From an uncultured Phycisphaerales bacterium (lineage in GTDB: Bacteria > Planctomycetota > Phycisphaerae > WQYP01), in contig CAVYBP010000002.1 of the NCBI GenBank assembly GCA_963766775.1, positions 406,910 to 470,909 of the forward strand: a stretch of DNA of 64,000 nt, read 5' to 3'. This document shows positions 14,350 to 62,850 of this stretch, in pieces. The notes below the pieces were generated by a model. That model was not told the DNA's origin. It searched no databases and was given only the letters and a program-made list of their open reading frames with translations. The position numbers were made by a program, and so were the translations under genes. Within the stretch, counting starts at the first letter, position 1. Every line of letters starts with the position of its first letter.

Positions 14350-14359
14350 AGGTGCCCAA

Positions 14360-23565: not shown

Positions 23566-23579
23566 AGAGACTGAGGCGT

Positions 23580-23608: not shown

Positions 23609-23637
23609 GCGTGGCTCGTTTTTGAAGGAATCATGCC

Positions 23638-23913
23638 ATGCCATATGAATGCGCTTACACTGGCCGTCGGACGAAGATTGGCCGTCAATGCACCTACCGC
23701 GGCAAAGCCAAGTATTTGGGCGGGGTCGGTATCAAGATTACGGGTCGCTCGTCCCGCAAGTTCAAGCCGAATCTGCAGAAGATTCGGGTTGTGATTGACG
23801 GGAAGGCGGAGCGGGTCTGGGCGTCGGCCAAGGCGATGCGGTCGGGTCTGGTGACGAAGCGGTTGCGCCGGTCGCAGACGTACAAGCATGTGAAGGCCGA
23901 AGCGAAGGCCTGA
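23638..23913 (+). CDS. rpmB: 50S ribosomal protein L28
   Basis: MPYECAYTGRRTKIGRQ...RKFKPNLQKIRV...VWASAKAMRSG fits the L28 pattern (GR..G...S......R.F.PNLQ). Confidence 0.85.
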   Translation: MPYECAYTGRRTKIGRQCTYRGKAKYLGGVGIKITGRSSRKFKPNLQKIRVVIDGKAERVWASAKAMRSGLVTKRLRRSQTYKHVKAEAKA

Positions 23914-23974
23914 ATGGGCGTTGGCGCGGCTTTTTAGAGTTGCTCGCGTTGACCGATAGTTAAAACTGACGTAC

Positions 23975-24001
23975 AAACGAGACCTTCGGGTCTCGTTTTT
24001 T
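23975..24001 (+). terminator. rho-independent terminator after rpmB
   Basis: aaacgagacc-ttcg-ggtctcgttttttt is a 7-bp GC-rich stem with a tetraloop and a T6 tail. Confidence 0.8.
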
Positions 24002-27801: not shown

Positions 27802-27993
27802 ATGCGATATTTACTTGCGTTCCTCTTTCCACCTTTGGCTGTCCTGTTGTGCGGAAAACCGGGTAAAGCATTTTTGAATCTCATCCTCACCTTGTGCTTT
27901 TATGTTCCTGGCGTCATTCACGCCATACTTGTCATTTCGGAAAAAAAGGCGGATGCCCGCACTGATCGTATCGTCAAGGCGATGGCGAAGTAA
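27802..27993 (+). CDS. YqaE/Pmp3-family small membrane protein
   Basis: MRYLLAFLFPPLAVLLCGKPGKAFLNLILTLCFYVPGVIHAILVI matches the family. A GGAGAA RBS lies 7 nt upstream of ATG 27802. Confidence 0.7.
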   Translation: MRYLLAFLFPPLAVLLCGKPGKAFLNLILTLCFYVPGVIHAILVISEKKADARTDRIVKAMAK

Positions 27994-29500
27994 TCTCACA
28001 CCACTTTCCATAATCGATCGCGACTGTCAATTGACCGCTGAGTATCCCCGCCCACGACTCCCAACACCTCCCCTTGTCTCCCGCTGTCTCACGCAACCGC
28101 TGATACCCCGCCTGCGCCATCCGCTGCCTCATGGCGTCGTCATAGGCGAGCATGGTGGCCTTCTCGGCGGCTTCGGTGGAGGTTTTGCACCGAAAGCCCG
28201 TCACTCCATTTTCGATGAGGTCAGGGAAGGCGTAATCGTCCTCGACAATCGGTATGACGCCGGCACTCCACGCCTCCAGCAGCACGCGGGGGTAGTTTTC
28301 CCGACTCCCGCCTGTTTGATGGATCATTGCATGGATGCGGGAGTAGAAGTCGGCTGCGGGCACACCCCCTGGCCCCCAGGTGAGCCAGTCCAGCCCCGGT
28401 GGCGGCGAGCCGCACTTACTTTTGGCCTTGTCTCCAAAGCCCAGCACGAACGCCTTGACGGGCTTGGGAGCTTTGACCGCGGCGAAGGTCTGCCACATAT
28501 CGGCGGGGTACTTGTTCGCATCGTCACGGCTGATTCTGCCGATGCCAAAGTAGCCCTTGTCACGGACCGGGTCGAAGACGAGCGGGTTGTCGCTGTCGAT
28601 CTTGTAGAACGGTTCATAGTCGAAGACTTTGACGGGCGCGATCGTCTCAAGCTCTGCGACAAGTTTATTGCGCTGGTAGGTTGTCTGGTATCCGAATTGG
28701 GTGATCTGCCCCCGGCGATGGGCTTCCTTCTCGGCGTCGAAAAGCCACGTCATGCAGTTGAACCAAATCACTTCCCTCGGCGGGGCATGTTGCCAAATCT
28801 CCGGCAACCGCTTTAGGAATTCGCCGCTGCAAAATGATACGACGATTCGATTGCGGAACACGCACGGGGAGTAGGGGACAGTCTCACAGCCGAGGCCGTC
28901 ACACAGCTTTCGCATTTCAACCGTCGGCGAGTTGAATGGCACGAGCACCACTCGCACCCCATAGGACCGCCACAGATACACCTGGTGGAGTAGTTCGGTG
29001 TCCGCGCCCCCGTAATGCCCCGGATACCCGCCGACGTAAATCTCCATTGCGGCCGGTTTGGACTCGATGGTGGGGAATTTGAGCTTCGGCCATTTATTGA
29101 GTAGGCACGCGGACTGGACAGGCTGGCCATCGGGGTAAGCGGCGTCAACAATCCCGAAGCGTTTGCGTATGTCGTTTTTCACACAATCGCACTGGTCGCA
29201 TCCGGCAATCGCACCGTCTTTGATGACGACGTGTTTGCACGAGTTGCATACTGCGGTCTGTGCCTCACTCAGCCCCGGCGAGTAAATGGGCAGACGATGG
29301 AGTTTAAGGTTGGCGACGTTCAGCATGTTGATGGGGCGGCTTGTCGCTTTTCGATCCGCCATTAGGGCATAGGCGGCGTCGGTCAAGTAGTAAGTGATGT
29401 CAGTGTCGCGTTCCTTATCGCGCAAACGCAATGCAGCATCCAAATACCATGGATGCTTTCGATTCTCTTTCTCTACATGCTGTTTCAGAATGTGTGGCAT
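27974..29500 (-). CDS. GT-B fold (GT4-like) glycosyltransferase with Cys-rich N-terminal region
   Basis: GGSRENYPRVLLEAWSAGVIPIVEDDYAFPDLIENGVTGF resembles the GT4 E-x7-E region. The N-terminus has CNSCKH...CDQCDC. The start overlaps the upstream stop (TAATG). Confidence 0.7.
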   Translation of the reverse strand: MPHILKQHVEKENRKHPWYLDAALRLRDKERDTDITYYLTDAAYALMADRKATSRPINMLNVANLKLHRLPIYSPGLSEAQTAVCNSCKHVVIKDGAIAGCDQCDCVKNDIRKRFGIVDAAYPDGQPVQSACLLNKWPKLKFPTIESKPAAMEIYVGGYPGHYGGADTELLHQVYLWRSYGVRVVLVPFNSPTVEMRKLCDGLGCETVPYSPCVFRNRIVVSFCSGEFLKRLPEIWQHAPPREVIWFNCMTWLFDAEKEAHRRGQITQFGYQTTYQRNKLVAELETIAPVKVFDYEPFYKIDSDNPLVFDPVRDKGYFGIGRISRDDANKYPADMWQTFAAVKAPKPVKAFVLGFGDKAKSKCGSPPPGLDWLTWGPGGVPAADFYSRIHAMIHQTGGSRENYPRVLLEAWSAGVIPIVEDDYAFPDLIENGVTGFRCKTSTEAAEKATMLAYDDAMRQRMAQAGYQRLRETAGDKGRCWESWAGILSGQLTVAIDYGKWCEITSPSP

Positions 29501-41176: not shown

Positions 41177-42915
41177 TTATCCTTTCAATTTGAGGGCGAC
41201 AATATCCACGATCTTCTGTGACAACTCCGACGCAACGGCGGCGGGGCGGGTTTTCTCTCGCTCTTGGCAAAATTCTTTGACCCGGCCTGCCCCGAAAGCC
41301 GTGCGAAGTGACTCCCGCACGCTTTTTAGTTCAGCGTCAATGAACACGTTGACGGCGCTTTGGACGGCGGCAGCAAGGTCGAGGGCGAGGCCATCCCCGC
41401 CCGCGGCGGCTTCGGCGAGGGCTTCGGCTGGCACGATGTATGCCTCTCGAAGATGGTCCCGATGCTCCCCATAGAACTTCTCGGCCCATTGCTCAAAAGC
41501 TCCCGCGTCTCGACCGTCGAAACGCTCAGCCGCCCTCGCTTCTTTCCTGACGAGCCGCTCGGCGGCGGCGGCGAAGAGCCGGGCATGTGATTTAGCGAGG
41601 CGGCGCATGGCGTTGGCGTTGTCCACGGTGCGGTTGGTTGGCACTGGTAGCGCGCGGTCCTTTTTCTTTTTCTTCGGCGAGTCCGGTTCATCATCGGACG
41701 GATCGGCGGGCGTCGGCGGGTCAGTTTCTTCGACCGGGTCGGCGGCGTCGGTCATATTGGTTGGCGATAGGTATGTGTCGCCGCCCTTGATCTGATTCAA
41801 GTCTTCCATCCCGCGCACGTCGTTGGCGCTGAGGTATCCATTCTGCCGGCCGCTGGCATAAAATGCCATGCGGGATTTGATGTCGCCGCGCAAAAGCGAT
41901 CGCTCGTTAAAGCTGGTGTAATACTGTCCGCCTGGCGGGAGAAGTTTAGCATCACATTCCTGTTCGAATTTACACGTGTAAGTCGCAAGCGTGTTGGTGA
42001 GGAAGTCGAGGGATTGCTGCTCGATGTTGTTGTTTGTCGAACGGTCGAGGTCAGCCAGCATGTGCGGCGGGATGCGGTAGATACGGGCGATCTCCTGCAC
42101 CTGAAATTTCCGGGTTTGAAGGAACTGCGCATCCTCGGGCGGAATCCCCACGCGGTTGTAGGTCATTCCCTCCTCGAGGATCGTCAATTTGTTGGCGTTG
42201 TTCACGCCCTGATGTTTCGCATTCCAACTCTCCATCAAACGGCGGTAAGCGCCATCGGTGAGATTCTTGGGATGGGTGAGGGTTCCACTCACATTTGCAC
42301 CATTCCCGAAAAATGCTGCGCCGAAAAGCTCCGCAGCCTTTCCGAGTCCCACGGCTTCGCGAGCGTAGGCGATGGGTGAAAGCCCCTCAATCCCGTTCAG
42401 GCTTAGGCCCGGAACGTACAGCACTTCATCCATGCTGAATTCCCCGCCGCCGTCCACTTGGATTTTCATCACGCCGCCGGTGCGGGTCGGGCGCATGAGG
42501 CGGGACATAAAGGGGATGAGTCGGGCAGGGCGTCCGGCGTTGTCATATTCGATCTTCGCGCCGCTCGCCCCCACAACACGAGATTCGCGAAAAACGTCTC
42601 CTTGAACACGGCGGCGGTCATGTACTCATTGGCGGCGGTCGAGAGAAGCCGGTGGGCGGGCATACTTCGGGCAATCTCCTTGCCCTGATCGTTTTCGAGG
42701 TTCCGATAAACGTTCACCTCCATGCTTCCTAGCGCCTCGGACAGCACGCGAACGGCGGCAAAAACAGCACTGAAGGTCAAGGCCGTCGCCTCATTGATTT
42801 GAACGCCGGATTTCGTCGGACCCATCGACAGAAGCATGGCCAATTGCTCCATGTTGATAGGCACGTTCGGATTTTCAATTGAGCGGTTTTCCCGCAAGAT
42901 TCCAAGCAAACCCAT
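41177..42915 (-). pseudogene. HK97-family portal protein, 1-nt deletion in a C5 run at 42568-42572
   Basis: The N-part (ATG 42915, MGLLGILREN...FKETFFANLVLWG) and the C-part (ASGAKIEYDNAGRP...YRIPPHMLADL) join if the G run on the coding strand is 6 rather than 5. Confidence 0.85.
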
Positions 42916-43103
42916 TATTGCTCCTCTGGTTTGGATGGCGGCGTAGGCCGACCGCTCGTGATCGCTTCGGCCAATAGGAATCCGCCCCCGACAATGAGAG
43001 ATGCGGGAAAATAAATCAGCCCCGCGCCCACGGTGATGCTGGTGGCTCCGAGGACTGCGATGATCGTGCTGGGCGGAATATTCGGCATTTTTGGCATTTT
43101 CAT
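42915..43103 (-). CDS. small membrane protein between terminase and portal
   Basis: The 62-aa protein has two hydrophobic segments. The ends abut or overlap the neighbouring genes by 1-4 nt (ORF coordinates). Confidence 0.45.
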   Translation of the reverse strand: MKMPKMPNIPPSTIIAVLGATSITVGAGLIYFPASLIVGGGFLLAEAITSGRPTPPSKPEEQ

Positions 43104-44782
43104 AGCGTGCGTAGTCCTCGTGTTTCGTAGACGCTCGTTTCGTTCGTGTCGCTGAACATTGCCCGCGCAAGAGCGGTCACTATTGCGGCTATGCCGTCGA
43201 TCTTCTCGGTGCTTTTTGACTTCGATGGCTTGATGTTGCCTGCGGAGTCTGTTTCAGCGGCCACATTGGACGCCATCCAATCCAGAACTGGGTTTCCATC
43301 GTGCGCAAAATCTCCATGTACAATCTGCTTTTCCAGTTCCTTCGATGGAGAATTCAGGTCTTTGAATCTTTGATTCACTTCTACGACCGTCATGCCCTGC
43401 GCCTGCAACTTCAAAACAAGCTGGGTGGCGTTAAAGGGATCAAATCCGATTTCCTGGACATCCCACAGCTTGGCATCCGTCTCAATTTGAGCCTGGATGT
43501 AGTCGTAGTCGATGACGTTGCCCGGCGTAAGAAAAAGGAAACCTTGCTCCCCCCACGTCTTATAGGGAACCTTGTCGTTCGACTCTCGCGATGCGGCGGT
43601 TTCTTCCGGCACCCAAAAACGACCCTTGTACCTCCACCGCCGATCCGCTTCGGTCGGGGGGAAACAATACACAGCGGCGGTGATGTCCAGTTTGGTCGAT
43701 AAATCGAGGCCGAGAAAACACCGCCGGCCAGATAGGTCGATGTCGGCCATAGGTGATTTGCACATTCGCCATTTGTCCATGCGAATCCAACGCTGCGCCT
43801 GCTCTGTCCATCGGTTCATGTGCTTGCGCAGGAATTCGTTTTGGAAGGTCGGCATCTGATCGGCTTTTCTGGCCTTCCGCTCCAAATCGTCAATTTTGAC
43901 CGACACACCGAGCCCTGGGTTAGCTTTAGGCCAGTTTTTGGGATCGCGCCAGTCGTCCTCTTCATCAATCGCATAAATGATCGCGAAGAAAGTGTCGTCT
44001 TGAATGATCCCTTCCAGCACTTTTTCGGAGTACGCGTGCATGTCCCAACAGACGCCGATTCGGCCCGCGCCGGCGGTGGTGATGATGAAGATTAGTGGTT
44101 GGCGGCGGGATCCCGTAGCGGAGTCCAGAACATCCAAAAGCCCGCGAGTTTTGTGCGCATGAAGCTCATCGACAATCGCGCCATGCGGGTTCAGGCCATC
44201 GAGCGTGTCCGAGTCCGCGCCAAGCGGGACAAACTTTGACGCCGTCTCCTCCAGAAATAGATTGTCCTTTAGGACTGCGATTAGCGTTTTGAGGTCGGGC
44301 GAGGCTTTGACCATTCGGACGGCTTCTGAATGGACAATTCGTGCCTGGTCCCGCTTCGTGGCGGCGGTGTAAACTTCGGCACCCGGCTCGCCGTCTCCGG
44401 CGAAGAGTTCAAGTCCGATCCCTGCTGCAAACGTCGATTTGCCATTTTTTCGCGCGACCTCTTCATAAGCCATTCGGAACCGCCGGAACCCATCCGCCCG
44501 ACGCCAGCCAAAAAGACACCACAAAATAAACTGCTGCCAGTCCGACAATGCAAACTGAGTTCCCGCCCACTCGCCTTTCGAGTGTTTGAGGAAAGAAAAA
44601 AAGCGGATTGCCCGCTCGGCCTTCGCGCGATCGAACCGAAGCCCACGCTTGTGGCCATCGCGCAGGTCGTTCACATGGCGCTCTACCGCGAGCCGTGCCC
44701 ACTTGCCTATGACGATATTCCCCGCCAAAACATCCGTTATGTACTGCTCTGCCGGGTGAGCTATGAGCTTTTGCGTTTTCAT
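43100..44782 (-). CDS. terL: terminase large subunit
   Basis: It has a Walker A-like VARKNGKST and DELH, and size and position fit. The start is chosen at MKTQKL (44782). Confidence 0.85.
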   Translation of the reverse strand: MKTQKLIAHPAEQYITDVLAGNIVIGKWARLAVERHVNDLRDGHKRGLRFDRAKAERAIRFFSFLKHSKGEWAGTQFALSDWQQFILWCLFGWRRADGFRRFRMAYEEVARKNGKSTFAAGIGLELFAGDGEPGAEVYTAATKRDQARIVHSEAVRMVKASPDLKTLIAVLKDNLFLEETASKFVPLGADSDTLDGLNPHGAIVDELHAHKTRGLLDVLDSATGSRRQPLIFIITTAGAGRIGVCWDMHAYSEKVLEGIIQDDTFFAIIYAIDEEDDWRDPKNWPKANPGLGVSVKIDDLERKARKADQMPTFQNEFLRKHMNRWTEQAQRWIRMDKWRMCKSPMADIDLSGRRCFLGLDLSTKLDITAAVYCFPPTEADRRWRYKGRFWVPEETAASRESNDKVPYKTWGEQGFLFLTPGNVIDYDYIQAQIETDAKLWDVQEIGFDPFNATQLVLKLQAQGMTVVEVNQRFKDLNSPSKELEKQIVHGDFAHDGNPVLDWMASNVAAETDSAGNIKPSKSKSTEKIDGIAAIVTALARAMFSDTNETSVYETRGLRTL

Positions 44783-45245
44783 CCGCGCCCCCGCCCAAGA
44801 ATTTCGCAAGGTTGTTTTCAGGAGCATCCTTCTCCACGCGCAGGCTCGACCGGCTGGAAGGCGTCAAACCAAACTCCGCGCCGAGCTTCCGCATTTGCTC
44901 CATCGCTTTATTTGCGATGGGGAGATAAGGATTGGGCTGCGGTGATCCGCCAACGTTCACCACTTCTCCATCCTCGACAACCCTCTTCTGTGAACGCACG
45001 AGACGAGCGTAGGCAAGGCAGTACATCACAATCGCATCACGATCTGTTTTCGCCAATATCTTCATCTCCCGAAGTTCAGTTAAGAGTGAGAACCACCGTT
45101 GCTGTGCGATGGGGTCAACAATCTCCTCTGGCCACACGGGATCACCTGGCGGCGGCTTCGGCTCATCACCATTGATTGGCCGCTTGCCGGGGTTGCCTTG
45201 GGCGAGTTTGAGGGCATTGGGCTTTGGCTTGGGTCCGCGTTTCAT
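44779..45245 (-). CDS. terS: terminase small subunit, P27 family (3' end uncertain; probable frameshift)
   Basis: MKRGPKPKPNALKLAQGNPGKRP...DAIVMYCLAYARLVR...LGAEFGLTPSSRS fits the P27 family. The listed frame runs 320 nt into terL, whereas another frame ends in a TGA overlapping the terL ATG (gGATGAaa). Confidence 0.65.
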
Positions 45246-45904
45246 TTTGTGTCCCCCGCTGCCAACACGGTATCCATCCACGTGCTGTGAAAATCATAGA
45301 GTTGCGGGTCGTTGGTGATGGTGAACTGTTCAGTGTTCCTGCAACTTCTTAAATTTGCCGATCCATCCACCGTGTAACTCTCGCCCGCCGTCGTCCGCAT
45401 CATGATTATTTTGGCGTGATTGCGCATCGCCACAATCTTCTGACCGCGCACATAAAGCCCTGCGGTCATGTGCTCGAAAATCTCGGTGCTCGTGGAGCGG
45501 AAATAGCAACTGCACACGATCTTGGCCGCACTGATCTTGCCTGCGTCGATCATGGCGAAAAGATCGTTTGCGTTTTTGACCGAAAATCCGAGAGTTGCAA
45601 TCCGAAGTTCGGCGATTGTGGCGGGGGAAATCATGGCGATGGTGGCAGGGACGATATCGAAGAGGGAATAGTTGCCGCGAGTTATGCAATGGAGCGAGAC
45701 GCCTTGCGCGGGAAGTTCCCTGATGTGATCGGTGGCGTTGGCAACGCGCAGGGAATCGAAGTATTCACGCTTCGTCGGTTTTCGGCTGAAGGTGGCATTC
45801 TTAATCATCTCCGGCGTCGGGTCGGTAGCCACGTCTTGTGTCATGGCCGATTCAAATCCCCGCAACTCCCGTATGCTGGTCATAGAAAAATCTTTGACTG
45901 TCAT
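45242..45904 (-). CDS. hypothetical protein with a single degenerate HKD-like (PLD/Nuc-type) motif
   Basis: NHAKIIMMRTTAGESYTVDGSANL resembles HxK(x)4D(x)nGSxN but with R in place of D and longer spacing. ATGA overlaps occur with HNH upstream and terS downstream. Confidence 0.4.
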   Translation of the reverse strand: MTVKDFSMTSIRELRGFESAMTQDVATDPTPEMIKNATFSRKPTKREYFDSLRVANATDHIRELPAQGVSLHCITRGNYSLFDIVPATIAMISPATIAELRIATLGFSVKNANDLFAMIDAGKISAAKIVCSCYFRSTSTEIFEHMTAGLYVRGQKIVAMRNHAKIIMMRTTAGESYTVDGSANLRSCRNTEQFTITNDPQLYDFHSTWMDTVLAAGDTK

Positions 45905-46212
45905 CGTCCAAATCCCCCATCCTCGGTCGCGGTCTTTTTATTGTGGTGCGTCTCACATAACGGTTGATGGTTGCTGTTGTCCCAAAACAACTTATCGTCG
46001 CCGCGGTGCGGGATGATATGGTCAACCACGGTTGGGGGTGTGAATCGGCCTTCCGCTTTGCAATGCCGACACACTGCATTCTCGGGCTGTCCGAGAAACC
46101 AAATCCGATACTTCTGCCACCTCGCCCCATATCCACGTTCCGCCGCCGTTCCGCGACGCTCGTCGTGCGACTGGTGAAAGGCTGGGCGATGAATGGGTGG
46201 GCGAGTTGGCAT
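45901..46212 (-). CDS. HNH endonuclease
   Basis: CRHCKAEGRFTPPTVVDHIIPHRGDDKLFWDNSNHQPLCETHHNKKT is an HNH motif. The position next to the terminase is typical. Confidence 0.85.
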   Translation of the reverse strand: MPTRPPIHRPAFHQSHDERRGTAAERGYGARWQKYRIWFLGQPENAVCRHCKAEGRFTPPTVVDHIIPHRGDDKLFWDNSNHQPLCETHHNKKTATEDGGFGR

Positions 46213-46515
46213 TTACATGACTACCAATAAATCGGCATAGAGGCTTTGGCTTGCGCTTGCGGATTGAATTTGGATGAGGGCGATTCCATTGCCATTAGTG
46301 CCGCCGCTTATTTGCTTGATTCCGCCGGGCCCGATGGAGAGAAAATTGACGCGACCTTGAATGTCGGTCCATTGGATGGCGATGCGATCCGTATTCGCTG
46401 TGGGAGCTTCAAATTCAAACGTGCGGGCCGGGCCATCCGTGCTTGCATTAAAGACGGTGCTGAGCGTGGCCGGCGTTGCCGACGTAACAAATGGTGTTGC
46501 GCTTCCTCGACTCAT
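46213..46515 (-). CDS. hypothetical protein
   Basis: The 100-aa ORF is tightly packed (TAAATG junction with HNH). No motif was recognised. Confidence 0.4.
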   Translation of the reverse strand: MSRGSATPFVTSATPATLSTVFNASTDGPARTFEFEAPTANTDRIAIQWTDIQGRVNFLSIGPGGIKQISGGTNGNGIALIQIQSASASQSLYADLLVVM

Positions 46516-46530
46516 GATGATATTCCTTTG

Positions 46531-48123
46531 TTAAAATCCAAAACCAAAACCGCCGCCTGATAGTTGCCCCGCTCCCGCCCCGTTCGCATTACTAAAAAGC
46601 TTAAATAAAACCGTATTAGACCAAGCCGCCGCCAACACGGGTTGACCAGTTGCGTTCGGATGCAGTCCGTCTGCGCTCCATGCGTTGTAATTGTTGGCGA
46701 AAAGCTGATATGCGGTGCGGTCGCCGATGATTGCACCGCTCAAGTTGTAATGTGATGCGTTGTAGGCCAACAGCAACGCGTTGGTTGAATCGACAAATGC
46801 GCTATTGGCAAAGCTCTGGTTGTAATAGAGACAGCCATTGACGACGACCTTGCCAGTGCCGAGGTTGGACGTGGCCGCGCGGCACCAATTGACGATGGCC
46901 TGCATGTTGACCTGGTACGCAGCGGCGGTGCGTAATCCCACCGCCGCGTCGTTTGCGCCGAGCATGAGCAGAACGATATCGGGGGCAAAGGCGACGATTG
47001 CTGATTGATAGGCGATGTACTCCGCGCCGCCGCTGATCCAGTCGCTCGTTTGAGTGCCGGATACCGCATAATTTGCGAGCGTTATGTCGCAACCCAAAAT
47101 TGCCTCAAGGTCCGCCTTAAACGCGGCGGCGGTTGCCCCCGGCGAGTTGATGGGGTCGGCTGGATTTCCGCCCGCGCTGCTGATTGAGTCGCCGACTACC
47201 GCGATCTTAATTGAGGGCCGGGTCTTGAGGGCGACGGCAATCTTGGAAGAGTAGCCAATTTGGGGAGTTGGCGATGTCGAGTCCGTGATTTTGTAGGCGT
47301 AAAAGTATGTGGTGTTTTTTGTCGGCGGAGGTGCGTCAGTCGTCGGAGCCGAGCTGCCGGACGCAATCAATGTCGCCCCGCTCGGAGTGAAGGTCGGGTC
47401 GGTAGAGCGGTGAAGTTCATACGAATATGGCGAGGTTCCTCCACTGACGGTGCCGGGGACGATGGTGATTGTCGTATTGGTGCTGCTGATAGTTGGGAGC
47501 GTCATTGCAGGCAGCGTAGTGTATTGAAAAGTGTCCACACGATAAATGCTGCCGGTCGTATCGGCCTGCAAACCAAACTGCCAAGCACCTCCACCGCCCG
47601 CGTTTGTGAACGCGTTGTCGGTCCAAGTTTGGGTCGCAAGAATCGTTGTGGGATCGCTGACGAGCGCAAGTGTTGCGGTGATCGTGTTGGTTCCAGGGCT
47701 TAACTCTTGGACCGAGTAGGTGTAAACGTAATCTTTTGTGGTGTCGAAAAAATTGATGAATTGGGATTGTGATCCATGCGCGGCCCCACCAAATACCGTT
47801 CCTCCGTTAAAGAATTTGTTGAACGCATCCCCGCCGATGTCGGAGTAATAGCACGTCTCCCCATAGGACGGATAAGTCGCATAATATTTTGCGAATACCC
47901 GAATATGATTGAGCCCAGTCCCGTGGAAATAAACCTGAATTTGACCATTGAGGACAGTTTCGGGCATGAGCGCCGACGCCAGCGGGTTGATCGTCAATGC
48001 CGCCGATCCGACGAGCAGTCCTCCACTGACCGAGTATGCCGACGTGCCAGAGTGGTTGGAGGTCCAGCCAGCCGGAAACGTAGAGCCTGACAGGACATAG
48101 CTGTTGAGGAGTTGGAGGGACAT
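46531..48123 (-). CDS. multidomain SGNH/GDSL esterase (N-terminal lectin-like + Fn3-like + SGNH)
   Basis: IAVVGDSISSAGG (block I), GANDA (block III) and DGLHPN (block V) are SGNH motifs. The protein ends in GGGFGFGF. Confidence 0.75.
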   Translation of the reverse strand: MSLQLLNSYVLSGSTFPAGWTSNHSGTSAYSVSGGLLVGSAALTINPLASALMPETVLNGQIQVYFHGTGLNHIRVFAKYYATYPSYGETCYYSDIGGDAFNKFFNGGTVFGGAAHGSQSQFINFFDTTKDYVYTYSVQELSPGTNTITATLALVSDPTTILATQTWTDNAFTNAGGGGAWQFGLQADTTGSIYRVDTFQYTTLPAMTLPTISSTNTTITIVPGTVSGGTSPYSYELHRSTDPTFTPSGATLIASGSSAPTTDAPPPTKNTTYFYAYKITDSTSPTPQIGYSSKIAVALKTRPSIKIAVVGDSISSAGGNPADPINSPGATAAAFKADLEAILGCDITLANYAVSGTQTSDWISGGAEYIAYQSAIVAFAPDIVLLMLGANDAAVGLRTAAAYQVNMQAIVNWCRAATSNLGTGKVVVNGCLYYNQSFANSAFVDSTNALLLAYNASHYNLSGAIIGDRTAYQLFANNYNAWSADGLHPNATGQPVLAAAWSNTVLFKLFSNANGAGAGQLSGGGFGFGF

Positions 48124-48139
48124 TTTTTATCCTTAAAAA

Positions 48140-49588
48140 TCAGGGACGGGAGAATGATTCGGTCGAGCCGTCCGAGTACGTGACGTTGACGGTGATGCTC
48201 CGGATAGTCTTGACGGATGGAGCGACAGGTGCGGCTGGCGTCGGCGTAGCGGGCACGACGGCTCCCACTGGCGTCAAGGTCAGGTCGCGGAAGTTGCATT
48301 GAGTGCCCGGCACGGTCGCGATGCGGAGCGTTGATAGTCCGGTGGGGAGGGCAATGCGGTAGGTCCACGATACGTATCGTTGCCAGTCTCCACTAGCAGG
48401 GGTGGAACTGGTTGCGACGGATTGCCCGTTGACCGAAATGATGCTCGTTACGGCTGAGATAGACCCGATGGGAATGACCAGATTGTACGCTCCATCTGCG
48501 ATAACGCTGACGGCGAAATCGACATAAGCCCCCTTGGGATCGACAAAGCCAAGGTTGGGGATACCTGACGGTCCAGACTCAATCCGCATCCCCGTGGGGA
48601 TGCCGCTGACAACGGGCACGGTTGTGGGAGTGGTTGGGGAGATTGCGATGGTCATGGTGGGCTCCTGGGGGGTCATGGAGGGGGTTAACGGCGCTGTAGT
48701 GGTCGTCGTGGAGGTGGCTGGCGGCGGTGACTGTTGAACATAGGCCGCCAGCAATCGCTTCCTAACCGGAAACGATCCTGTCTGCGCGCCGTTGAAGATC
48801 GCAGGGTTGGCAACAGTCGATGGAGATGTGGGCGAAATATCAATCGAGCCGGCCCACGGGTTTCGCATGAGGAGGTTGCCCGCGGCGTCCGACGCACGGA
48901 CCGCGTAAAAATGATCCTGAACCCACGGCGATGGGGCCGTGGGCGTGGTCATAAGAGAAACCACGGACCCCGCATTCATCGCGGCAATGATGGCGGATGA
49001 GGCGACCACCGTGCCGCCGACATCCAATCCGAACGCCGCCAGCGCCGACACGACGTTTCCGAGGTTCAACTGGTAGTAATCGCTGATCCCATTGCGGAAA
49101 AACGCATACACCTTCTCCAGCAACTCCACCCGAATATCCCCATTGACTGGTTTGTCGTAATCGGTGGAGACGACGAGCGATGTGGTAATCTGAATAATCA
49201 GCCCGTTCGACCACAATTGAACGACCACCTTCCCGTCACCGATGGGCACAATCAGGTCGTCAAAATAAGACGGGTCGCGAAACAGAATCAGCAGAATTGC
49301 GACCAACAGCCAACAATCGCCCAGCACGTTCTGATTGACGGCGGCGGGGTCGATGGGGCCTGTTAAGATCGTCCCGACCGTCGTATCCCCTGCATGGTCA
49401 ATAGTCGTCTGCGTTTCCGTCTTGATCGGCGGTGGTGCGTCTCCGGCAGAGATCACGCGTACCGACTCGATGTTCGTACGCTTCACCCCATTGATTGCCT
49501 TATACCGATCCCGCTTCATTAGCGGTCGGGTATCGACGGCGATCATGCCGTTGAAGTGGGCTTCAAGTTTTGCGGGCATGGTTTTCAT
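48140..49588 (-). CDS. calpain-like (peptidase C2) cysteine protease with C-terminal carbohydrate-binding-like beta domain
   Basis: QNVLGDCWLLVA (Cys), ELLEKVYAFF, DHFYAV (His) and LLMRNPWAGS (Asn) occur in calpain order. The start is chosen at ATG 49588, 1 nt after the upstream stop. Confidence 0.75.
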   Translation of the reverse strand: MKTMPAKLEAHFNGMIAVDTRPLMKRDRYKAINGVKRTNIESVRVISAGDAPPPIKTETQTTIDHAGDTTVGTILTGPIDPAAVNQNVLGDCWLLVAILLILFRDPSYFDDLIVPIGDGKVVVQLWSNGLIIQITTSLVVSTDYDKPVNGDIRVELLEKVYAFFRNGISDYYQLNLGNVVSALAAFGLDVGGTVVASSAIIAAMNAGSVVSLMTTPTAPSPWVQDHFYAVRASDAAGNLLMRNPWAGSIDISPTSPSTVANPAIFNGAQTGSFPVRKRLLAAYVQQSPPPATSTTTTTAPLTPSMTPQEPTMTIAISPTTPTTVPVVSGIPTGMRIESGPSGIPNLGFVDPKGAYVDFAVSVIADGAYNLVIPIGSISAVTSIISVNGQSVATSSTPASGDWQRYVSWTYRIALPTGLSTLRIATVPGTQCNFRDLTLTPVGAVVPATPTPAAPVAPSVKTIRSITVNVTYSDGSTESFSRP

Positions 49589-49589
49589 T

Positions 49590-50366
49590 TCAGGATGGCC
49601 CCGATTTACAGTGATATGGACGGCTCTGAAATCTCTTGGTCGTGCGCCCACACCAGTTAGCCCCGAGTTCTGCTGGCTCACTTTCCAGGTGGACGACAAC
49701 GATCTCCGGCAAAAGCTCGCGATTACGGCGGTCCCACTGGAGGGCGAATTGAACATCGGATCGGCACGCGTCCCCGTGGCTGATCGGATACGTGCGGTGC
49801 CTGCGCCCGCGCCATTCATCCGCTGAACCGTGCCAGAGCTGGAAGAATCCAATCGGGACGTATCCGCTGGCCGAGAGTGCCCAGCGCGTTCCGATGTCGA
49901 TGCCCATTGGCATGTTGACGCTGCAATGAGTGTGGCCGAGAAATCCGCTGGCTTTTACCGCCTGCCATTGCTCCCATGACCGGACCATCATCCGATCACA
50001 TCCGTACAGATTGTTGGGGTTTAGATGAGCCCCCTCGATCATGCGGCGGAACTGATGCGGCAAAACAATGTCGCCGTCGAGGTGTAGACGCCACGAATCT
50101 GAGGAGAGCATGGAGAGCCCGCGATCTACCATCCGGCCTTTGTTGAACGCCCCTCCATCCATGCCGCCGGCGGCGCGGCGATGATCGTTGCTGAGAACCG
50201 TTTCAAGATCGTGAACACGGCAGATTTCCCGCGTCTCTTCATCGTCCTCGGTCGTTACGATGATCCACCGGTCGAGGAGGCCGGCGTTGTAGCTCGCAGT
50301 CTCCGCGAGAAAGTCCGCATATCCGACGCACACCGTCACGGCCTCAAGTCTTTGAATGGAACGCAT
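49590..50366 (-). CDS. putative GT-A-fold glycosyltransferase
   Basis: VTVCVGYADFL....WIIVTTEDDEET...FNKGRMVDRGL...WRLHLDGDIVLP has a DxD-like motif. This is a motif-level call only. Confidence 0.5.
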   Translation of the reverse strand: MRSIQRLEAVTVCVGYADFLAETASYNAGLLDRWIIVTTEDDEETREICRVHDLETVLSNDHRRAAGGMDGGAFNKGRMVDRGLSMLSSDSWRLHLDGDIVLPHQFRRMIEGAHLNPNNLYGCDRMMVRSWEQWQAVKASGFLGHTHCSVNMPMGIDIGTRWALSASGYVPIGFFQLWHGSADEWRGRRHRTYPISHGDACRSDVQFALQWDRRNRELLPEIVVVHLESEPAELGANWCGRTTKRFQSRPYHCKSGPS

Positions 50367-50378
50367 GGTATCTCCGGA

Positions 50379-50981
50379 CTAAACATGGATGATGGATGAA
50401 TGAGGCTGCCAACGGGGTACGTGCGTGTCTCTACGAGTTCGCGGTGCGCCAGCGCTGGCAGCGACGGAGGGCATCGCCGCTGACACGTATGCGACGATGC
50501 GCACTCTGATCGATGCGAGCCCCTGAATCGAACAATGGTCAACGCCTGGACCGTCACAATTAACATTGAGATAAACGTCAGACGCATTGTGGATTCCCGC
50601 GCTATGCGGTACCGAATTAACATTGAAGGCGACTGCACCGGAGATATTCGATGGGATGTGCCACGGCTCGCCATAGAACTGACCGAACCAAAAGCGGGGA
50701 ACGCCGGCGATGATGAACAATTGTTGAATGATCGGCTTTGTCGAAAGCACATACATCGCGTGCCACAGTGCGGCCTGACCATACGAATAGGTCACAACCA
50801 CGTCGTGGCCGGGGATGTCAGTCGGGTCAAGGGTGTCCCATTGTCGGCGGGTGACTGGAGACGGCAGGATTAAATCGAGAGCATCGGCGATATCCCAAAT
50901 GCCCGACCCGTCGCCAACCTTCTCGTTGAATCCGCTGACAATTAAAACTTTCATAATCGGTCCTTTGCTGAGGGTTGTCAC
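50379..50981 (-). CDS. hypothetical alpha/beta-fold-like protein
   Basis: MKVLIVSGFN...VVVTYSYGQAALW is a GxSxG-like nucleophile elbow with the first G replaced. The C-terminal 50 aa look out of frame. Confidence 0.35.
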   Translation of the reverse strand: MTTLSKGPIMKVLIVSGFNEKVGDGSGIWDIADALDLILPSPVTRRQWDTLDPTDIPGHDVVVTYSYGQAALWHAMYVLSTKPIIQQLFIIAGVPRFWFGQFYGEPWHIPSNISGAVAFNVNSVPHSAGIHNASDVYLNVNCDGPGVDHCSIQGLASIRVRIVAYVSAAMPSVAASAGAPRTRRDTHVPRWQPHSSIIHV

Positions 50982-51031
50982 GAACGGGCCGACGTTGCCA
51001 TCGGCCCGTGATGTGAGAATCGTCAGAGCCT

Positions 51032-51460
51032 TTACTTGGGCGAACTATTGCCCGCGATAGCCGCCTGCGCGGTCGCATGCGCCGCCTGATTTGATTTGTG
51101 CATGAACAGCCCAAAGAGTCCGGCAATGAGTGGCGTGGCAAAAGCGGTGATAAAGCTCGCCAATGCGAGGTATGGGCTTGCCGGCGTTGGCACCACACTG
51201 GCCGCCGCGGTCGCCTGCGAGATTGCATTGCCGGTGGCCTGGACCACGGCGGCGGGGTCCCCGGTGGCCTGCGCCTGCTGAATGCCGGAGATACTTGCGT
51301 TAAGTCCAGGCATCGCTGAGTTAATCGTGTTCACAGCCTGCACCACGGCGGTGGGGATTTTCACCTGAGGCGGTGACGGGGCGGTGGTCTGTGCCATCGT
51401 GGGTGCGGCTGCAATAAAAAATAGCGATAGGATGAGAGGCAAAACGGTTCGGAGTTTCAT
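51032..51460 (-). CDS. secreted/membrane-anchored Ala-rich protein
   Basis: The ATG at 51460 follows aagga. It has a signal peptide (MKLRTVLPLILSLFFIAAAPTMAQ) and a C-terminal TM (LASFITAFATPLIAGLFGLF). Confidence 0.5.
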   Translation of the reverse strand: MKLRTVLPLILSLFFIAAAPTMAQTTAPSPPQVKIPTAVVQAVNTINSAMPGLNASISGIQQAQATGDPAAVVQATGNAISQATAAASVVPTPASPYLALASFITAFATPLIAGLFGLFMHKSNQAAHATAQAAIAGNSSPK

Positions 51461-51521
51461 GTGGATTCCTTTTCTGTGGGTCTTTTCAAGTTCTCGGAAA
51501 ACATTCCCGAGACGTTTGAAT

Positions 51522-51791
51522 TCATTGCCTTCGATGGTTGCTAAAAGCCCGCATCGTTTCCTGGTGCCGATCTGCGGAAATTTCATTTTGCATCCGCATC
51601 GATTCATTCAAAATCTTGCTCGATTCCGCAAGTTGCCGGATACCATTCATCACTACATCCTCGGATGAGTTATTGGTCGGGCGCTTCCACAACCGGTCCC
51701 CAACCAGCACTATCACGCTGACGAGAGAAGCAAATGACATCCACCATGTGGTGTCCGGTCCAGCGGCATCTGCAATCGCTTGTATGAGCAT
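51522..51791 (-). CDS. small single-TM protein (holin-like by size and topology only)
   Basis: The TM is WWMSFASLVSVIVLVG, followed by a charged tail. Confidence 0.4.
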   Translation of the reverse strand: MLIQAIADAAGPDTTWWMSFASLVSVIVLVGDRLWKRPTNNSSEDVVMNGIRQLAESSKILNESMRMQNEISADRHQETMRAFSNHRRQ

Positions 51792-61361: not shown

Positions 61362-62507
61362 ATGAATCATTTTATGGTGGACAAGGGGCACCGATTGCTT
61401 CAGAATTGGTGCATGGAAAACCAGTTTTGCGGCATTATCCGGGAACTTCGTAACTTTGCGCGTCTTTCCCAGCGAGACCTTGCGGTACTCGCGAAAGTTT
61501 CGCCAACGACGATAGTTAATCTAGAGTCTAGGGGCCGCGAGGACGCAAGAGATGCAACCGTGTCCGCAGTCGGTCGGGCGCTTGCTGAGGCACTTCATAT
61601 ACCACCGGACGTTGTTATTGCAGCCCTAGACAAATATCGTCCGGAAATTCATAGTGCCCGTTTGATGGTGAGCACAACTGACAGTGCGCTAATGCTTCAT
61701 CTAAAAAGCAATAAAAGCCGGACGGCTTATCTATCGTTGGCCGCGAAACTAACGCATGCTTTTTCTCTTTCAATTCACCAGATTTCCCGCGCGTCAGGGA
61801 TCAATTTGGCGACGATTGTACGTGCTTTCGCAACATCTTATTGTCCAGAAGATGACGTGTGGCCGCTTTTTCGTGGGTTTCGAGAAGTGTTACGTGCTAG
61901 GCTCAACATTCTCGATAACGCAAGAGATGAGATCGACAAAATCTTAATCGCGCAGAAGGAATTGCCCGCTGGTTCAGGAACGCATAGCGGTGAAACTGGT
62001 GTGTCACCTTTGCGCATCGAGCGAATCGGTGGTATCGGAGATATGTTGGGCAATTTGCTGCGAGTTCGGAAGTGGAAATTTTCTGATGTTGCATTGGTCG
62101 CAAAAATTCCTGAAGAACGGATAAAAGCTATTGTCTCGGGCGATGAGGCGACGTACGACGAGACGATTATTCTGGCGAGAGTGCTTCATAGTCATGAGCT
62201 GGTCCCTCGTTGGCAGGCGGACTCTGCTGCCGTTAGGGATTCGGATGCACGCACCAAAAAACAAATAACTCTGTACGCGCAGGTTTTGCTACAGAGGGTT
62301 CAAATTGAATTGATGAAGGCTATTTCGGCAGCGCAGGGAGTGGGAACCGATGCAGACAGACTTCAGCACGTCGTAATGCATTTGACGAAAGGCGAAAAGA
62401 TCGTAGGCGATGCGCTCTCGAAGATAGACACCGAGATTTCTGCCGTCAGTGTATTAGACGCGGTCAACGACGCAATGCAACACGAAACGTCAGGGGATGA
62501 AAAATGA
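61362..62507 (+). CDS. XRE-family regulator with three HTH-like modules (putative prophage repressor)
   Basis: The three modules are IRELRNFARLSQRDLAVLAKVSPTTIVNLESRG, FSLSIHQISRASGINLATIVRAF and VRKWKFSDVALVAKIPEERIKAIVSG. It is the only plus-strand gene of the prophage core. Confidence 0.6.
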   Translation: MNHFMVDKGHRLLQNWCMENQFCGIIRELRNFARLSQRDLAVLAKVSPTTIVNLESRGREDARDATVSAVGRALAEALHIPPDVVIAALDKYRPEIHSARLMVSTTDSALMLHLKSNKSRTAYLSLAAKLTHAFSLSIHQISRASGINLATIVRAFATSYCPEDDVWPLFRGFREVLRARLNILDNARDEIDKILIAQKELPAGSGTHSGETGVSPLRIERIGGIGDMLGNLLRVRKWKFSDVALVAKIPEERIKAIVSGDEATYDETIILARVLHSHELVPRWQADSAAVRDSDARTKKQITLYAQVLLQRVQIELMKAISAAQGVGTDADRLQHVVMHLTKGEKIVGDALSKIDTEISAVSVLDAVNDAMQHETSGDEK

Positions 62508-62610: not shown

Positions 62611-62850
62611 TCAGCGCCGCATGCTCGCGCCAAGCTCGGACGGAGAAATTTTGCACTCCATGAGTTCCAGCATGGTGATGGGGCGTTGATTGAATCGCTT
62701 CTCTCCGTCGATGGTTAAGTCCCATCGCAGAAAAAACATGATTCCAGCTTCATCCTCGGCAATGCGTATCGAGTACGTTCCGCTTTTTAGTTCAGCAGCC
62801 CACGCCGCGAAGCATTCCCCGATGGCATCCCATTCTTTGCTTTTCATCAT
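62611..62850 (-). CDS. hypothetical protein downstream of integrase
   Basis: The internal start MMKSKEWD lies at 62850/62847, abutting the integrase stop. The upstream part of the listed ORF overlaps int out of frame. Confidence 0.4.
   Translation of the reverse strand: MMKSKEWDAIGECFAAWAAELKSGTYSIRIAEDEAGIMFFLRWDLTIDGEKRFNQRPITMLELMECKISPSELGASMRR

Follow-up and report, generated by a model that had tools for sequence, protein, structure and literature searches.

A Candidate Non-canonical Lysis Module in the Gene Block between Early and Packaging Genes of a Phycisphaerae Prophage

Phages lambda and HK97 carry their lysis genes S-R-Rz between the replication and packaging genes. In mycobacteriophages, LysA can contain papain-family domains, and the esterase LysB acts on the outer membrane; LysB is encoded by a separate small gene beside the peptidase, and the enzymes lack signal peptides (PMC3314691, PMC6116114). 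For the unimolecular spanins (u-spanins), 13 families have been described, and for T1 gp11 the prediction is a periplasmic domain composed mostly of beta-sheet (Kongari et al., 2018; PMC6139136).

Position and layout of the block

We compared these systems with a gene block on the minus strand (51791–46213) of a 64,000-nucleotide stretch of DNA (the window), which contains an HK97/lambda-like prophage of the Phycisphaerae (Planctomycetota). The prophage gene order is int–early genes–block–HNH/terS/TerL–head–tail, in agreement with an earlier, sequence-only reading that placed the block between the early/replication genes and HNH-terS. The same reading set down this domain combination in this position as apparently undescribed; since the lysis genes of lambda and HK97 occupy exactly this site, the position is the expected one for a lysis cassette rather than odd, and the block sits where a normal cell-wall-cutting lysis enzyme would be expected. 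The reading that we prefer, with confidence about evenly balanced, is that the block opens the late operon of a lambda/HK97-organized prophage and is mosaic, with a non-canonical lysis module at its core. Seven genes plus an HNH endonuclease gene, rather than the eight counted earlier, fill 51791–45901; as had been claimed, they are all co-oriented and tightly packed, with intergenic gaps of 0–61 nt and otherwise overlapping reading frames (start codons were vetted against RBS-like motifs). The features are as follows:

g1: 51522..51791, minus strand, 89 aa, putative small membrane protein
g2: 51032..51460, minus strand, 142 aa, signal-peptide-like N terminus and C-terminal TMD
g3: 50379..50954, minus strand, 191 aa, predicted minimal serine hydrolase
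g4: 49590..50366, minus strand, 258 aa, GT-A glycosyltransferase-like protein
g5: 48140..49588, minus strand, 482 aa, calpain-like core and CBM6-like module
g6: 46531..48123, minus strand, 530 aa, C-terminal SGNH/GDSL esterase
g7: 46213..46515, minus strand, 100 aa
HNH endonuclease: 45901..46212, minus strand, Pfam HNH E 6e-6, phrog_2323 E 1e-27
Packaging genes (220-aa phrog_16945 protein, P27-type terS, TerL): 43100..45904, minus strand
62-aa membrane protein in the TerL/portal interval: 42915..43103, minus strand, phrog_502 'membrane protein' E 3.5e-8
508-aa GT1-family glycosyltransferase at the distal end of the tail module: 27974..29500, minus strand, Pfam Glycos_transf_1 E 4e-9

The HNH gene, which starts 1 nt past the g7 stop codon, forms the junction to the packaging genes, beyond which lie the genes for portal, S78 protease, HK97-type capsid protein, and tail. 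Promoter-like and terminator-like sites are not enriched within the block, and the frames overlapping or abutting into HNH-terS imply late lytic expression. The 62-aa membrane protein of the late operon is a possible holin candidate. The GT1 glycosyltransferase, 57% identical to the product of 7202–8770 in phage L256, ties the prophage to that phage, in which the orthologous gene precedes a lysis-type cassette containing a g3 relative.

As in the lambda/HK97 holin-endolysin-spanin cassette, the block lies between early/regulatory genes and cos/HNH-terS, runs in the same direction as the packaging genes and directly into them, and starts with its small membrane proteins; unlike that cassette, it is much longer (5.6 kb) and includes extra enzymes, and the window lacks a muralytic enzyme family, a recognizable holin family, and a lipoprotein o-spanin. 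Pfam and PHROG comparisons of the minus-strand ORFs scanned at ∼27.9–64 kb, which took in the cassette, packaging, head, and tail genes and the larger early genes and left aside ∼10 of the shortest early-region ORFs (41–95 aa), gave no lysin-family match; at that level, and for these ORFs, the earlier statement that the prophage has no recognizable endolysin stands. No peptidoglycan-binding or muralytic signature was found in any gene of the block. Because the portal, actP-like, and gatA genes of the window are split by frameshifts, a lysin gene lost to indel errors is conceivable; no fragment of such a gene was seen.

The g1–g3 genes and their relatives

g1 has a short N-terminal hydrophobic segment (∼residues 16–31) followed by a charged helical tail. 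The segment behind its earlier description as a single-TM protein is present, but it is short and marginal, falling below the hydropathy cut-off used here (Kyte-Doolittle 1.5 over 19 residues; ∼1.4 by hand calculation). g1 has no Pfam, PHROG, or PADLOC match and may be a membrane plus coiled-coil protein resembling a holin or an i-spanin; its charge distribution suggests an N-out/C-in arrangement, unlike that of an i-spanin. Analogous but non-homologous TM plus coiled-coil proteins flank the g3 relatives in L082, L085, L251, and L256.

Hydropathy bears out the signal peptide and C-terminal TM segment that had been read in the Ala-rich g2: a signal-peptide-like segment at residues 5–23 and a TMD at 98–116 enclose an Ala/Gln-rich middle, and a short tail follows, the layout of a type I membrane protein. 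The protein is 48% identical to the product of the gene that immediately precedes the g3 homologue in L082–L084, and another relative, L253_200, resembles the T1 gp11-type unimolecular spanins in combining a true lipobox (LLTGC) with a C-terminal TMD, which is the u-spanin topology. g2 itself, in contrast to T1 gp11, lacks the lipobox cysteine (no lipobox is present in any ORF of the block), and its periplasmic part is Ala/Gln-rich and predicted to be probably helical.

The g3 product, which had been called alpha/beta-fold-like, is verified by modeling as a predicted signal-less minimal alpha/beta serine hydrolase. Its AF2 model (pLDDT 79.5) matches the minimal alpha/beta hydrolases B. subtilis LipA and YdeN in Foldseek (E 3e-3, TM ∼0.5), as well as an 'Alpha/beta hydrolase [uncultured Caudovirales phage]' (E 2.4e-5), and S57 (in the YSYG elbow) and H140 are invariant among 33 relatives. 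The likeness to LipA and YdeN extends to size, strand order, the Ser elbow after the central strand, and the His near the C terminus; against it stand the modest TM and E values, the lack of an identifiable conserved acidic triad residue, and the lack of any matching Pfam family. The g3 family is small, with 85 representative clusters, and in four of these the domain is fused to a papain-like peptidase: P0140, P0149, and P0181 join the g3 domain to Peptidase_C1 (Pfam E 3.5e-14 to 7.5e-8), and P0141 joins it to a peptidase of the L085 type.

Relatives of g3 lie in lysis-type gene clusters of five other phage lineages, with holin-like, lipoprotein, and membrane plus coiled-coil neighbors. L256–258 have the order GT1–Phage_holin_10 protein (a weak Pfam match in L256)–lipoprotein–42-aa TM protein–g3–TM/coiled-coil protein, and the L251 cluster holds a TM/coiled-coil protein, a 2-TM holin-like protein, two lipobox proteins, and g3. 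In the Mu-like L085, L086, and L250, a lipobox protein, a papain-like peptidase, g3, and a TM/coiled-coil protein directly precede gp27/TerL, the site of lys in Mu. L082–84 have a TM/coiled-coil protein, a g2 homologue, and g3 upstream of the GpA terminase, and L253 has a lipobox g2-like protein, g3, a LamG protein, and a 287-aa protein without a Pfam match that is a possible terS candidate. The papain-like peptidases recur elsewhere: in the GenBank phage MW202816.1, the peptidase gene and an Amidase_2 endolysin gene overlap over 10 nt and are read in the same direction, with genes for a multi-TM protein and a lipobox protein ahead of them, and in Komagataeibacter phage phiKX2 a gene of the peptidase family is followed by a lipoprotein gene. 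By its gene context, the g3-associated peptidase family itself appears to be lysis-linked.

The holin-like and lipoprotein genes beside g3 relatives, the peptidase fusions, and the MW202816.1 overlap therefore lead us to read g1–g3 as a non-canonical lysis module. Most likely, by analogy, this conserved core of small membrane proteins and a tiny serine esterase would burst the host in an unusual way. The unconventional lysis cassette suggested earlier for the whole block thus finds its support, from the lysis-type clusters and the peptidase fusions, in this core only, and g5 joins it by analogy.

g4 to g7 and alternative readings of the block

The GT-A likeness earlier seen in g4 from an LDGD motif was confirmed: the AF2 model (pLDDT 91) has a GT-A fold (Foldseek matches to K4CP, SpsA, hyaluronan synthases, and GT2 structures, E 3e-7), and the DxD motif D97-x-D99 is invariant. 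Homologues number more than 1000 (55–84% identity) and occur in at least 202 IMG/VR loci with unrelated neighbors, as seen across 64 loci; none was found in GenBank phages. One has TerL on one side and, ahead of the head genes, a 98-aa ORF on the other (L259), one lies between a lysozyme gene and the integrase gene at a prophage end (L168), a typical moron site, and a lone homologue is present in a planctomycete chromosome. Judged from these sequences, g4 is an autonomous, highly conserved, and widespread phage glycosyltransferase-like gene without fixed neighbors, tied to lysis by proximity alone. A lysogenic-conversion or surface-glycan remodeling cassette, expressed from the prophage, in which the GT-A enzyme adds and the esterases remove substituents of envelope polysaccharides, would accommodate g4, the two esterases, and the carbohydrate-binding modules of the block, as well as the L168 and chromosomal g4 homologues; yet signal peptides and membrane anchors are absent from the enzymes, the block showed no promoter or terminator of its own, the frames run on into HNH-terS, and no flippase or Gtr-like membrane partner accompanies them. 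Of the three explanations first offered for the block it is the least supported, and we regard it as very improbable.

g5 consists of a conserved N-terminal ∼80 aa, a calpain-like core, a Thr/Pro linker, a CBM6-like module, and a short C-terminal beta region. The CBM-like C terminus that had been proposed is confirmed as CBM6 by the family profile (E 6e-9 against PDB CBM6; the Pfam match falls just below threshold). As for the calpain-like assignment, the motifs GDCW (C92), QDH (H226), and RNPW (N243) are present, whereas the Pfam Peptidase_C2 match (E 1.4e-4) scores 21.5 bits, just below the 23.8 cut-off. Like calpain (peptidase C2), g5 has LGDCWLL, H, and RNPW in the right order, and the Pfam C2 alignment spans model positions 45–220; unlike calpain, it scores below the gathering threshold, lacks the calpain accessory domains, is fused to a CBM6-like module, and is phage-encoded, two of the four family members do not retain the Asn, and the family profile matches PDB calpains at the Cys motif only. 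The other three members are P0002, P0003, and a PA14 fusion in L085, whose gene is flanked by those for the major head protein and a tail-fibre-like protein; one of the three, in L001, stands alone in a non-phage chromosomal context. No homology is detectable between g5 and the g3-associated papain-like peptidases.

In g6, an N-terminal part of ∼300 aa precedes an SGNH/GDSL esterase (Pfam Lipase_GDSL E 1.6e-17) with all four SGNH blocks (GDS311, the SG Gly near 350 as read from the translation, GAND389, and DGLH485) and with PDB matches to acetyl esterases at weak E values. The esterase described earlier is intact, whereas domain tests of the N-terminal part for lectin-like or Fn3-like regions were negative and leave these unsupported. 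SGNH domains are also found in an 859-aa L168 protein encoded immediately before the lysozyme cluster and in a minor tail protein of a Curtobacterium phage. g7 gave no Pfam, PHROG, or PADLOC match and has no TMD at the hydropathy cut-off, and no relatives of g6 or g7 were found in viral collections. The N termini of g3, g5, and g6 carry no export signal (the hydropathy scan found no N-terminal hydrophobic segment), which fits holin-dependent release. By prediction, g5 and g6 are probable accessory envelope hydrolases.

Alternatively, g5, g6, and g7, and possibly g3, may be virion-associated or co-released envelope-degrading, EPS-degrading, or adhesion proteins encoded away from the tail module, leaving lysis to g1 and g2 at most. 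Carbohydrate-binding modules recur (CBM6 in g5, PA14 in its L085 relative, and LamG_3 in proteins downstream of g3 in L082 and L253), SGNH domains occur in phage tail-region proteins, and CBM6, PA14, LamG, and SGNH modules are typical of receptor-binding and depolymerase proteins too. The head and fibre-like neighbors of the L085 relative fit as well, as do an 815-aa protein in the same place in L082, fibre-like by eye only and with no Pfam or PHROG match, and the small tail-tip proteins of the window, among which no receptor-binding protein is recognized. We nevertheless consider this reading unlikely: g5 and g6 resemble neither PHROG structural families nor the tail proteins of the window, fibre-like repeats and anchor domains were not recognized in them, the L001 homologue lies outside a phage context, and the g3-peptidase fusions and holin or lipoprotein neighbors point to lysis rather than virion structure.

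The repeated finding of g3 beside membrane proteins, lipoproteins, and peptidases, at both classical sites for a lysis cassette, and its fusion to peptidases also argue against the block being a pile-up of unrelated late-region accessory genes (morons) in which g2-g3 serve another role, such as superinfection exclusion or counter-defense; moreover, no other lysis genes were found in the prophage ORFs scanned, and PADLOC gave no match for the block. The autonomy of g4 and its placement after TerL in L259, the tiny and scattered g5 family, the lack of g6 and g7 relatives in viral collections, and the restriction of what the window and the related cassettes have in common to g2 and g3 speak for such a pile-up, which we hold to be improbable. 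The lone standing of g4 and the scatter of g5 leave the earlier picture of one enzyme-rich, single-purpose operon unsupported.

Proposed mechanism and the mycobacteriophage parallel

From the folds, motifs, gene order, fusions, and neighborhoods observed here, we infer all activities, substrates, and timing of the preferred lysis module as follows. Late in infection, g1, through its TM segment and helical tail, and g2, a type I membrane protein with relatives that have a lipobox and C-terminal TMD like a unimolecular spanin, would permeabilize or bridge the envelope, and the signal-less enzymes, having built up in the cytoplasm, would then gain access to it. The Ser-His alpha/beta hydrolase g3 would cut an ester bond in an envelope lipid, a lipoprotein, or an acylated polymer, a role analogous to that of mycobacteriophage LysB, and a clan-CA cysteine peptidase would cut peptide links of the wall, in peptidoglycan stems or envelope proteins. 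That peptidase would be the calpain-like g5 here, targeted via its CBM6-like module, and the papain-like enzyme fused or adjacent to g3 in the relatives. g6 would be a probable accessory de-O-acylase, and g4 an independent late gene, there by chance and outside the lysis chemistry.

Like the mycobacteriophage cassette (LysA with a papain-family/C39-like N5 domain, LysB, and holin), the block brings together small membrane proteins with a predicted cysteine peptidase and a predicted esterase of the serine alpha/beta-hydrolase type, its enzymes lack signal peptides, and the host has an atypical envelope. It differs in having no glycosidase, amidase, or peptidoglycan-binding domain, in a peptidase that is calpain-like with a CBM6 module, and in its host, a diderm planctomycete rather than a mycolate bacterium. 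Nor is g3 homologous to LysB: BFVD matches to LysB/esterase proteins are non-significant (E 0.06–0.27), and its minimal fold of 170–190 aa is nearer to LipA and YdeN.

Prophage layout and place of the block

The prophage occupies the minus strand over about 27.9-64 kb of the window. Its host belongs to the Phycisphaerae: gatA in the flank shares 85% identity with counterparts in Phycisphaerae MAGs, and a PEP-CTERM protein adjoins the prophage.

Features of the prophage, read along the minus strand
62847-63920: tyrosine integrase
Next: early genes, among them an NrS-1-like primase-polymerase and a protein of 676 aa (possibly a helicase) with matches to two PHROGs of unassigned function
51791-46213, minus strand: the block, g1 to g7 (89, 142, 191, 258, 482, 530 and 100 aa)
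46212-45901, minus strand: HNH, followed by a phrog_16945 protein, a P27-type terS and TerL
Past TerL: portal, S78 prohead protease and HK97-fold capsid protein
Then: head-tail connectors, tail tube, chaperones, tape-measure protein and four small tail-tip proteins
27974-29500, minus strand: GT1 glycosyltransferase, at the end of the tail module

The gene order (integrase, early genes, block, HNH, terS, TerL) puts the block first among the late genes, a lysis-cassette position; the order is that of the lambda prophage, so the block lies where lambda and HK97 have S-R-Rz. The sequence-only reading had described eight tightly packed, co-oriented genes between the replication and packaging modules, in a prophage with no recognisable endolysin. 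That description holds overall, including the tight packing, and only the count changes: there are seven genes, with RBS-like motifs and with short spacers or overlapping frames, and the HNH gene begins one base beyond the end of g7. Scanning the block for promoters and terminators returned fewer sites than shuffled sequence, with terminators not in excess, and given this and the close spacing the block would most simply be the 5' part of a late transcript.

No muralytic family (lysozyme, transglycosylase, amidase or peptidoglycan endopeptidase) was found by Pfam and PHROG searches in the block or in the other prophage ORFs scanned, in agreement with the earlier impression. PHROGs gave zero matches to g1-g7, and among 80 loci of TerL relatives from many phyla, which have HNH and terS in common with the window, none carries any of g1-g7. 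A defence-system reading was rejected, as PADLOC models gave zero matches to g1-g7 and their neighbours. The assembly contains genes split by frameshifts, namely the portal gene (41177-43170, minus strand; two overlapping frames, with Phage_portal positions 1-74 in 42469-43170 and 70-321 in 41177-42574), an actP-like host transporter (4357-6311, plus strand) and gatA (25254-26420, plus strand), whose C-terminus is garbled. This suggests indel errors of a long-read assembly, the probable cause, or a decaying prophage, and makes the absence of any gene slightly less secure.

The g2-g3 core and its relatives

An AF2 model of g3 (built from 7 sequences, pLDDT 79.5) is, by Foldseek, similar to LipA and YdeN, two minimal alpha/beta hydrolases, and to small proteins from uncultured phages annotated 'alpha/beta hydrolase' (E 2.4e-5, TM 0.55-0.62); the sequence itself has no match in the PDB. 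In a 33-sequence alignment, invariance is confined to S57, in a Y-S-Y-G elbow, V85 and H140, and no acid residue is conserved. The fold matches and the invariant Ser and His identify g3 as an alpha/beta hydrolase, substantiating its earlier description as alpha/beta-fold-like. Of the features of the mycobacteriophage LysB/cutinase family, with its G-x-S-x-G motif and Ser-Asp-His triad, g3 has the fold, the Ser and the His, and LysB/esterase structures match only at E 0.06-0.27, values that do not support homology and at which g3 would be a functional analogue of LysB only. With 85 representative clusters out of 1.84 billion, the family is a small one, and its broad alignment (A5) is too divergent for locus scans; a single metagenome scan gave one locus only. 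Homologues of g3, g4 and g5 are absent among GenBank phages.

All readable g3 contexts are phage late-region clusters rich in small membrane proteins and lipoproteins.

Gene neighbourhoods of g3 homologues in relatives (L-numbers are loci)
L082-84: TM/coiled-coil protein, g2 homologue (48% identity), g3 (80%), LamG_3 protein, 815-aa protein; upstream of GpA terminase
L085 (from a Phycisphaerae MAG), L086 and L250, Mu-like: lipobox protein, papain-like peptidase, g3, TM/coiled-coil protein, gp27/TerL; the Mu lys position
L251: tail genes, TM/coiled-coil protein, 2-TM holin-like protein, two lipobox proteins, g3
L253: g2-like protein with a true lipobox and C-terminal TMD, g3, LamG_3 protein, 287-aa protein with no Pfam match (possible terS)
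L256-258: tail genes, GT1 (57% identity to that of the window), weak Phage_holin_10 protein, lipoprotein, 42-aa TM protein, g3, TM/coiled-coil protein

From these neighbourhoods, the conserved core of the block appears to be g2-g3 with a g1-like partner. An 80-aa Cys-rich protein (MHYRNGREAKNGDKIVKLEGG...) is conserved beside g3 homologues in two unrelated cassettes (L251 8129-8371 and L253 1331-1573) and is missing from the window.

The two small membrane proteins differ in how clearly their segments stand out. Two clear hydrophobic segments are present in g2, at residues 5-23 and 98-116, as expected from the signal peptide and C-terminal TM segment previously read there; the latter (mean hydropathy 1.97) is a C-terminal TMD such as unimolecular spanins have. 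Proteins of the g2 type approach the topology of unimolecular spanins (Kongari et al., PMC6139136), but the signal of the window's g2 ends in ...AAPTMAQ, with no Cys, and so lacks the defining lipobox, which is present as LLTGC in its homologue L253_200. An embedded o-spanin ORF was sought in the block and rejected, the search being empty, and no lipobox ORF occurs across 45.8-52.6 kb. The single TM segment attributed to g1 can be seen but is short and marginal (best 19-residue hydropathy about 1.4 by hand calculation, below the 1.5 cut-off); it is accompanied by a charged tail, and g1 matches no holin family. In the relative cassette L256, a weak Phage_holin_10 match and the 42-aa TM protein are found. 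Proteins of the g1 type may be either holins or i-spanin analogues.

A probable connection of g3 with lysis comes from papain-like peptidases. Four clusters of the g3 family are fusions with an N-terminal peptidase of this kind, recognised as Peptidase_C1 in the relative proteins P0140, P0149 and P0181 (E 3.5e-14, 6e-11 and 7.5e-8), and the N-terminus of the fourth fusion, P0141, is 49% identical to the separate peptidase that is paired with g3 in L085. The family of the L085 peptidase, phrog_19005, is present in GenBank MW202816.1, where the peptidase gene overlaps an Amidase_2 gene (AmpDh2/AmpD/AmiD matches, E 3e-7) by 10 nt in the same orientation, with a multi-TM protein and a lipobox protein upstream; in Komagataeibacter phages, a peptidase of the same type is followed by a lipoprotein. 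Fusion or adjacency of g3 to the peptidase, and the peptidase's membership of a lysis cassette, form a chain that would tie g3 to lysis, a two-step guilt by association that recurs consistently in different lineages and at each of the two classical lysis-cassette positions.

Accessory genes and lysis of planctomycete hosts

The AF2 model of g4 (66 sequences, pLDDT 91) has a GT-A fold, with K4CP, SpsA and the hyaluronan and heparosan synthases as Foldseek matches (E 3e-7 to 1e-5), and its D97 and D99 (D-x-D) are invariant, so that the GT-A-like assignment made from the LDGD motif stands. By sequence, g4 falls below threshold against the Pfam GT2 models and has no match in the PDB. There is no Pfam model for its family, which comprises ~250-aa GT-A proteins encoded by phages from the environment and by prophages in several phyla (L087, L168-L249, L259), with more than 1000 homologues at 55-84% identity, at least 202 loci in IMG/VR and none in 50,697 GenBank phage records.

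Examples of g4 contexts
L168, Bacteroidota prophage: beside Phage_lysozyme, near the integrase
Mu-like phages: upstream of gp27/TerL
L259: directly after TerL, with a 98-aa ORF and then the head genes behind it
Planctomycete chromosome: lone copy

Clustering of neighbours at 64 loci found no shared partner gene, and a Pfam scan of g4 neighbours (n = 150) returned scattered, unrelated functions; such partnerless contexts make g4 an autonomous late gene. The idea that g4 is the missing endolysin was rejected because of its clear GT-A fold, the bona fide Phage_lysozyme adjoining it in L168 and the lack of conserved neighbours. One possibility, which is speculation, is that g4 glycosylates virion proteins, as proposed for mycobacteriophage glycosyltransferases (PMC11256854); the idea is of note given the second glycosyltransferase of the prophage (GT1) and the Ser/Thr/Pro-rich linkers in g5 and g6. 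Being very conserved, present in hundreds of environmental phages and in none of those in GenBank, g4 is itself a target for functional work. A 312-aa protein of L082 was considered as a second GT-A protein and dismissed, the likeness being a short motif match only (hhalign probability 3%); its sequence has no match in the PDB.

The proposal that g5 is calpain-like with a CBM-like C-terminus proved sound for the CBM: CBM_6 is just under the Pfam threshold for the single sequence, and a three-sequence g5-family profile matches CBM6 chains in the PDB at E 6e-9. For the calpain part, the motifs GDCW (with C92), QDH and RNPW occur in calpain order, but Peptidase_C2 scores 21.5 bits against a cut-off of 23.8, and about a dozen PDB calpains match the family profile in the Cys motif only (E 0.3-0.7). 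Homologues of g5 number only two among 5.8 billion proteins, one of them alone in a chromosome, plus a relative in the Mu-like Phycisphaerae phage L085 (17269-18666), in which the calpain-like domain is fused to PA14 and is flanked by the major head protein and a PHROG-427 protein of 130 aa on one side and by a fibre-like gene on the other; this phage also carries the papain-like peptidase and g3 pair in the lys position. A profile comparison of g5 with the g3-associated papain-like peptidases gave no similarity, and the two are treated as analogous rather than homologous.

Of the lectin-like and SGNH parts previously assigned to g6, the second is borne out: g6 is a bona fide SGNH esterase (Lipase_GDSL, 64.8 bits against 23.6) with blocks I, II, III and V all present (GDS311, GAND389, DGLH485). 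No domain was found in its N-terminal 300 residues, for which a PDB sequence search was empty, and BLASTP and hhalign gave no similarity to the LamG_3 proteins of related cassettes, which does not bear out a lectin-like N-terminus. Close relatives of g5 and g6 were absent from genome and viral collections, and an exact look-up found neither g6 nor the relative protein P0003 on record. A role of g6 in lysis would be assigned by context only.

Taken together, the data support the earlier interpretation in part: the block is a mosaic made of a lysis-type core and independent accessory genes. Of the unconventional lysis cassette proposed from sequence the core survives, whereas the single-purpose operon does not, g4 being autonomous and g5 scattered. 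The functions of all the block genes are ones that we infer. In this prophage the calpain-like g5 would act as the peptidase partner of the lysis module, the weakest step, since g5 is not homologous to the papain-like partners. Lysis of planctomycetes by phages is, to our knowledge, essentially unstudied; a 2025 review of Planctomycetota mentions phages once, and a literature search on planctomycete phages and endolysins turned up no relevant work. The closest parallel is the LysA/LysB/holin system of mycobacteriophages, which attacks an atypical envelope with a peptidase domain of the papain family and an esterase that is a separate protein (PMC3314691, PMC6116114). For a long time the wall of planctomycetes was held to be proteinaceous; peptidoglycan components were detected later, and the cells resist peptidoglycan-targeting antibiotics (PMC12673574). 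In Planctopirus limnophila, several peptidoglycan synthesis genes are non-essential (PMC10632474). For such an envelope, it would be reasonable for lysis to depend on a protease and an esterase instead of a muramidase.

That phages of Phycisphaerae and other Planctomycetota lyse their hosts with no muralytic endolysin, relying on a dedicated set of small membrane proteins or lipoproteins together with a cysteine peptidase of clan CA and a minimal serine hydrolase of the g3 type, we regard as unlikely; the reason would be that envelope integrity rests more on protein or lipid-linked components than on peptidoglycan. If it were true, lysis enzymes of phages would gain a new class in the g3 family. 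Should the g3-plus-cysteine-peptidase module be the lytic machinery, it would represent a new lysis-enzyme family of about 85 clusters that has no Pfam or PHROG model and would probe which bonds hold the planctomycete envelope together, and the endolysin-less automated annotation of such prophages would be explained.

Other features of the window

The end of the tail module (27974-31490, minus strand) encodes the 508-aa GT1 glycosyltransferase, which has a Cys-rich N-terminal part; before it come two small tail-tip proteins (366 and 222 aa) that are unusually rich in Cys. In the corresponding stretch of L256 (6328-8770), the GT1 orthologue carries an Evr1_Alr sulfhydryl-oxidase domain. This hints at tail tips that are disulfide-rich and possibly glycosylated. 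The terS and TerL ORFs, in different frames, have about 365 nt in common (44463-44827, minus strand), and the C-terminal 60-100 aa of the terS frame give separate tblastn matches at TerL gene starts in distant relatives (L002, L006, L014, L018 and L081), a pattern suggestive of a long terS/terL overlap under conservation, or of a product from an alternative frame. Between TerL and portal, an odd site for a small membrane protein, lies a 62-aa membrane protein (phrog_502; 42915-43103, minus strand) that could be a holin or antiholin candidate. A 381-aa plus-strand protein between the integrase and the early genes (61362-62507) seems by eye to contain several XRE-like HTH repeats and is possibly an unusual multi-HTH repressor. 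Across the host genes at 10000-24000 (plus strand), which encode very large repeat proteins (848, 1106 and 1260 aa), the GC skew has strongly negative values, between -0.2 and -0.4, and its sign flips near 24 kb.
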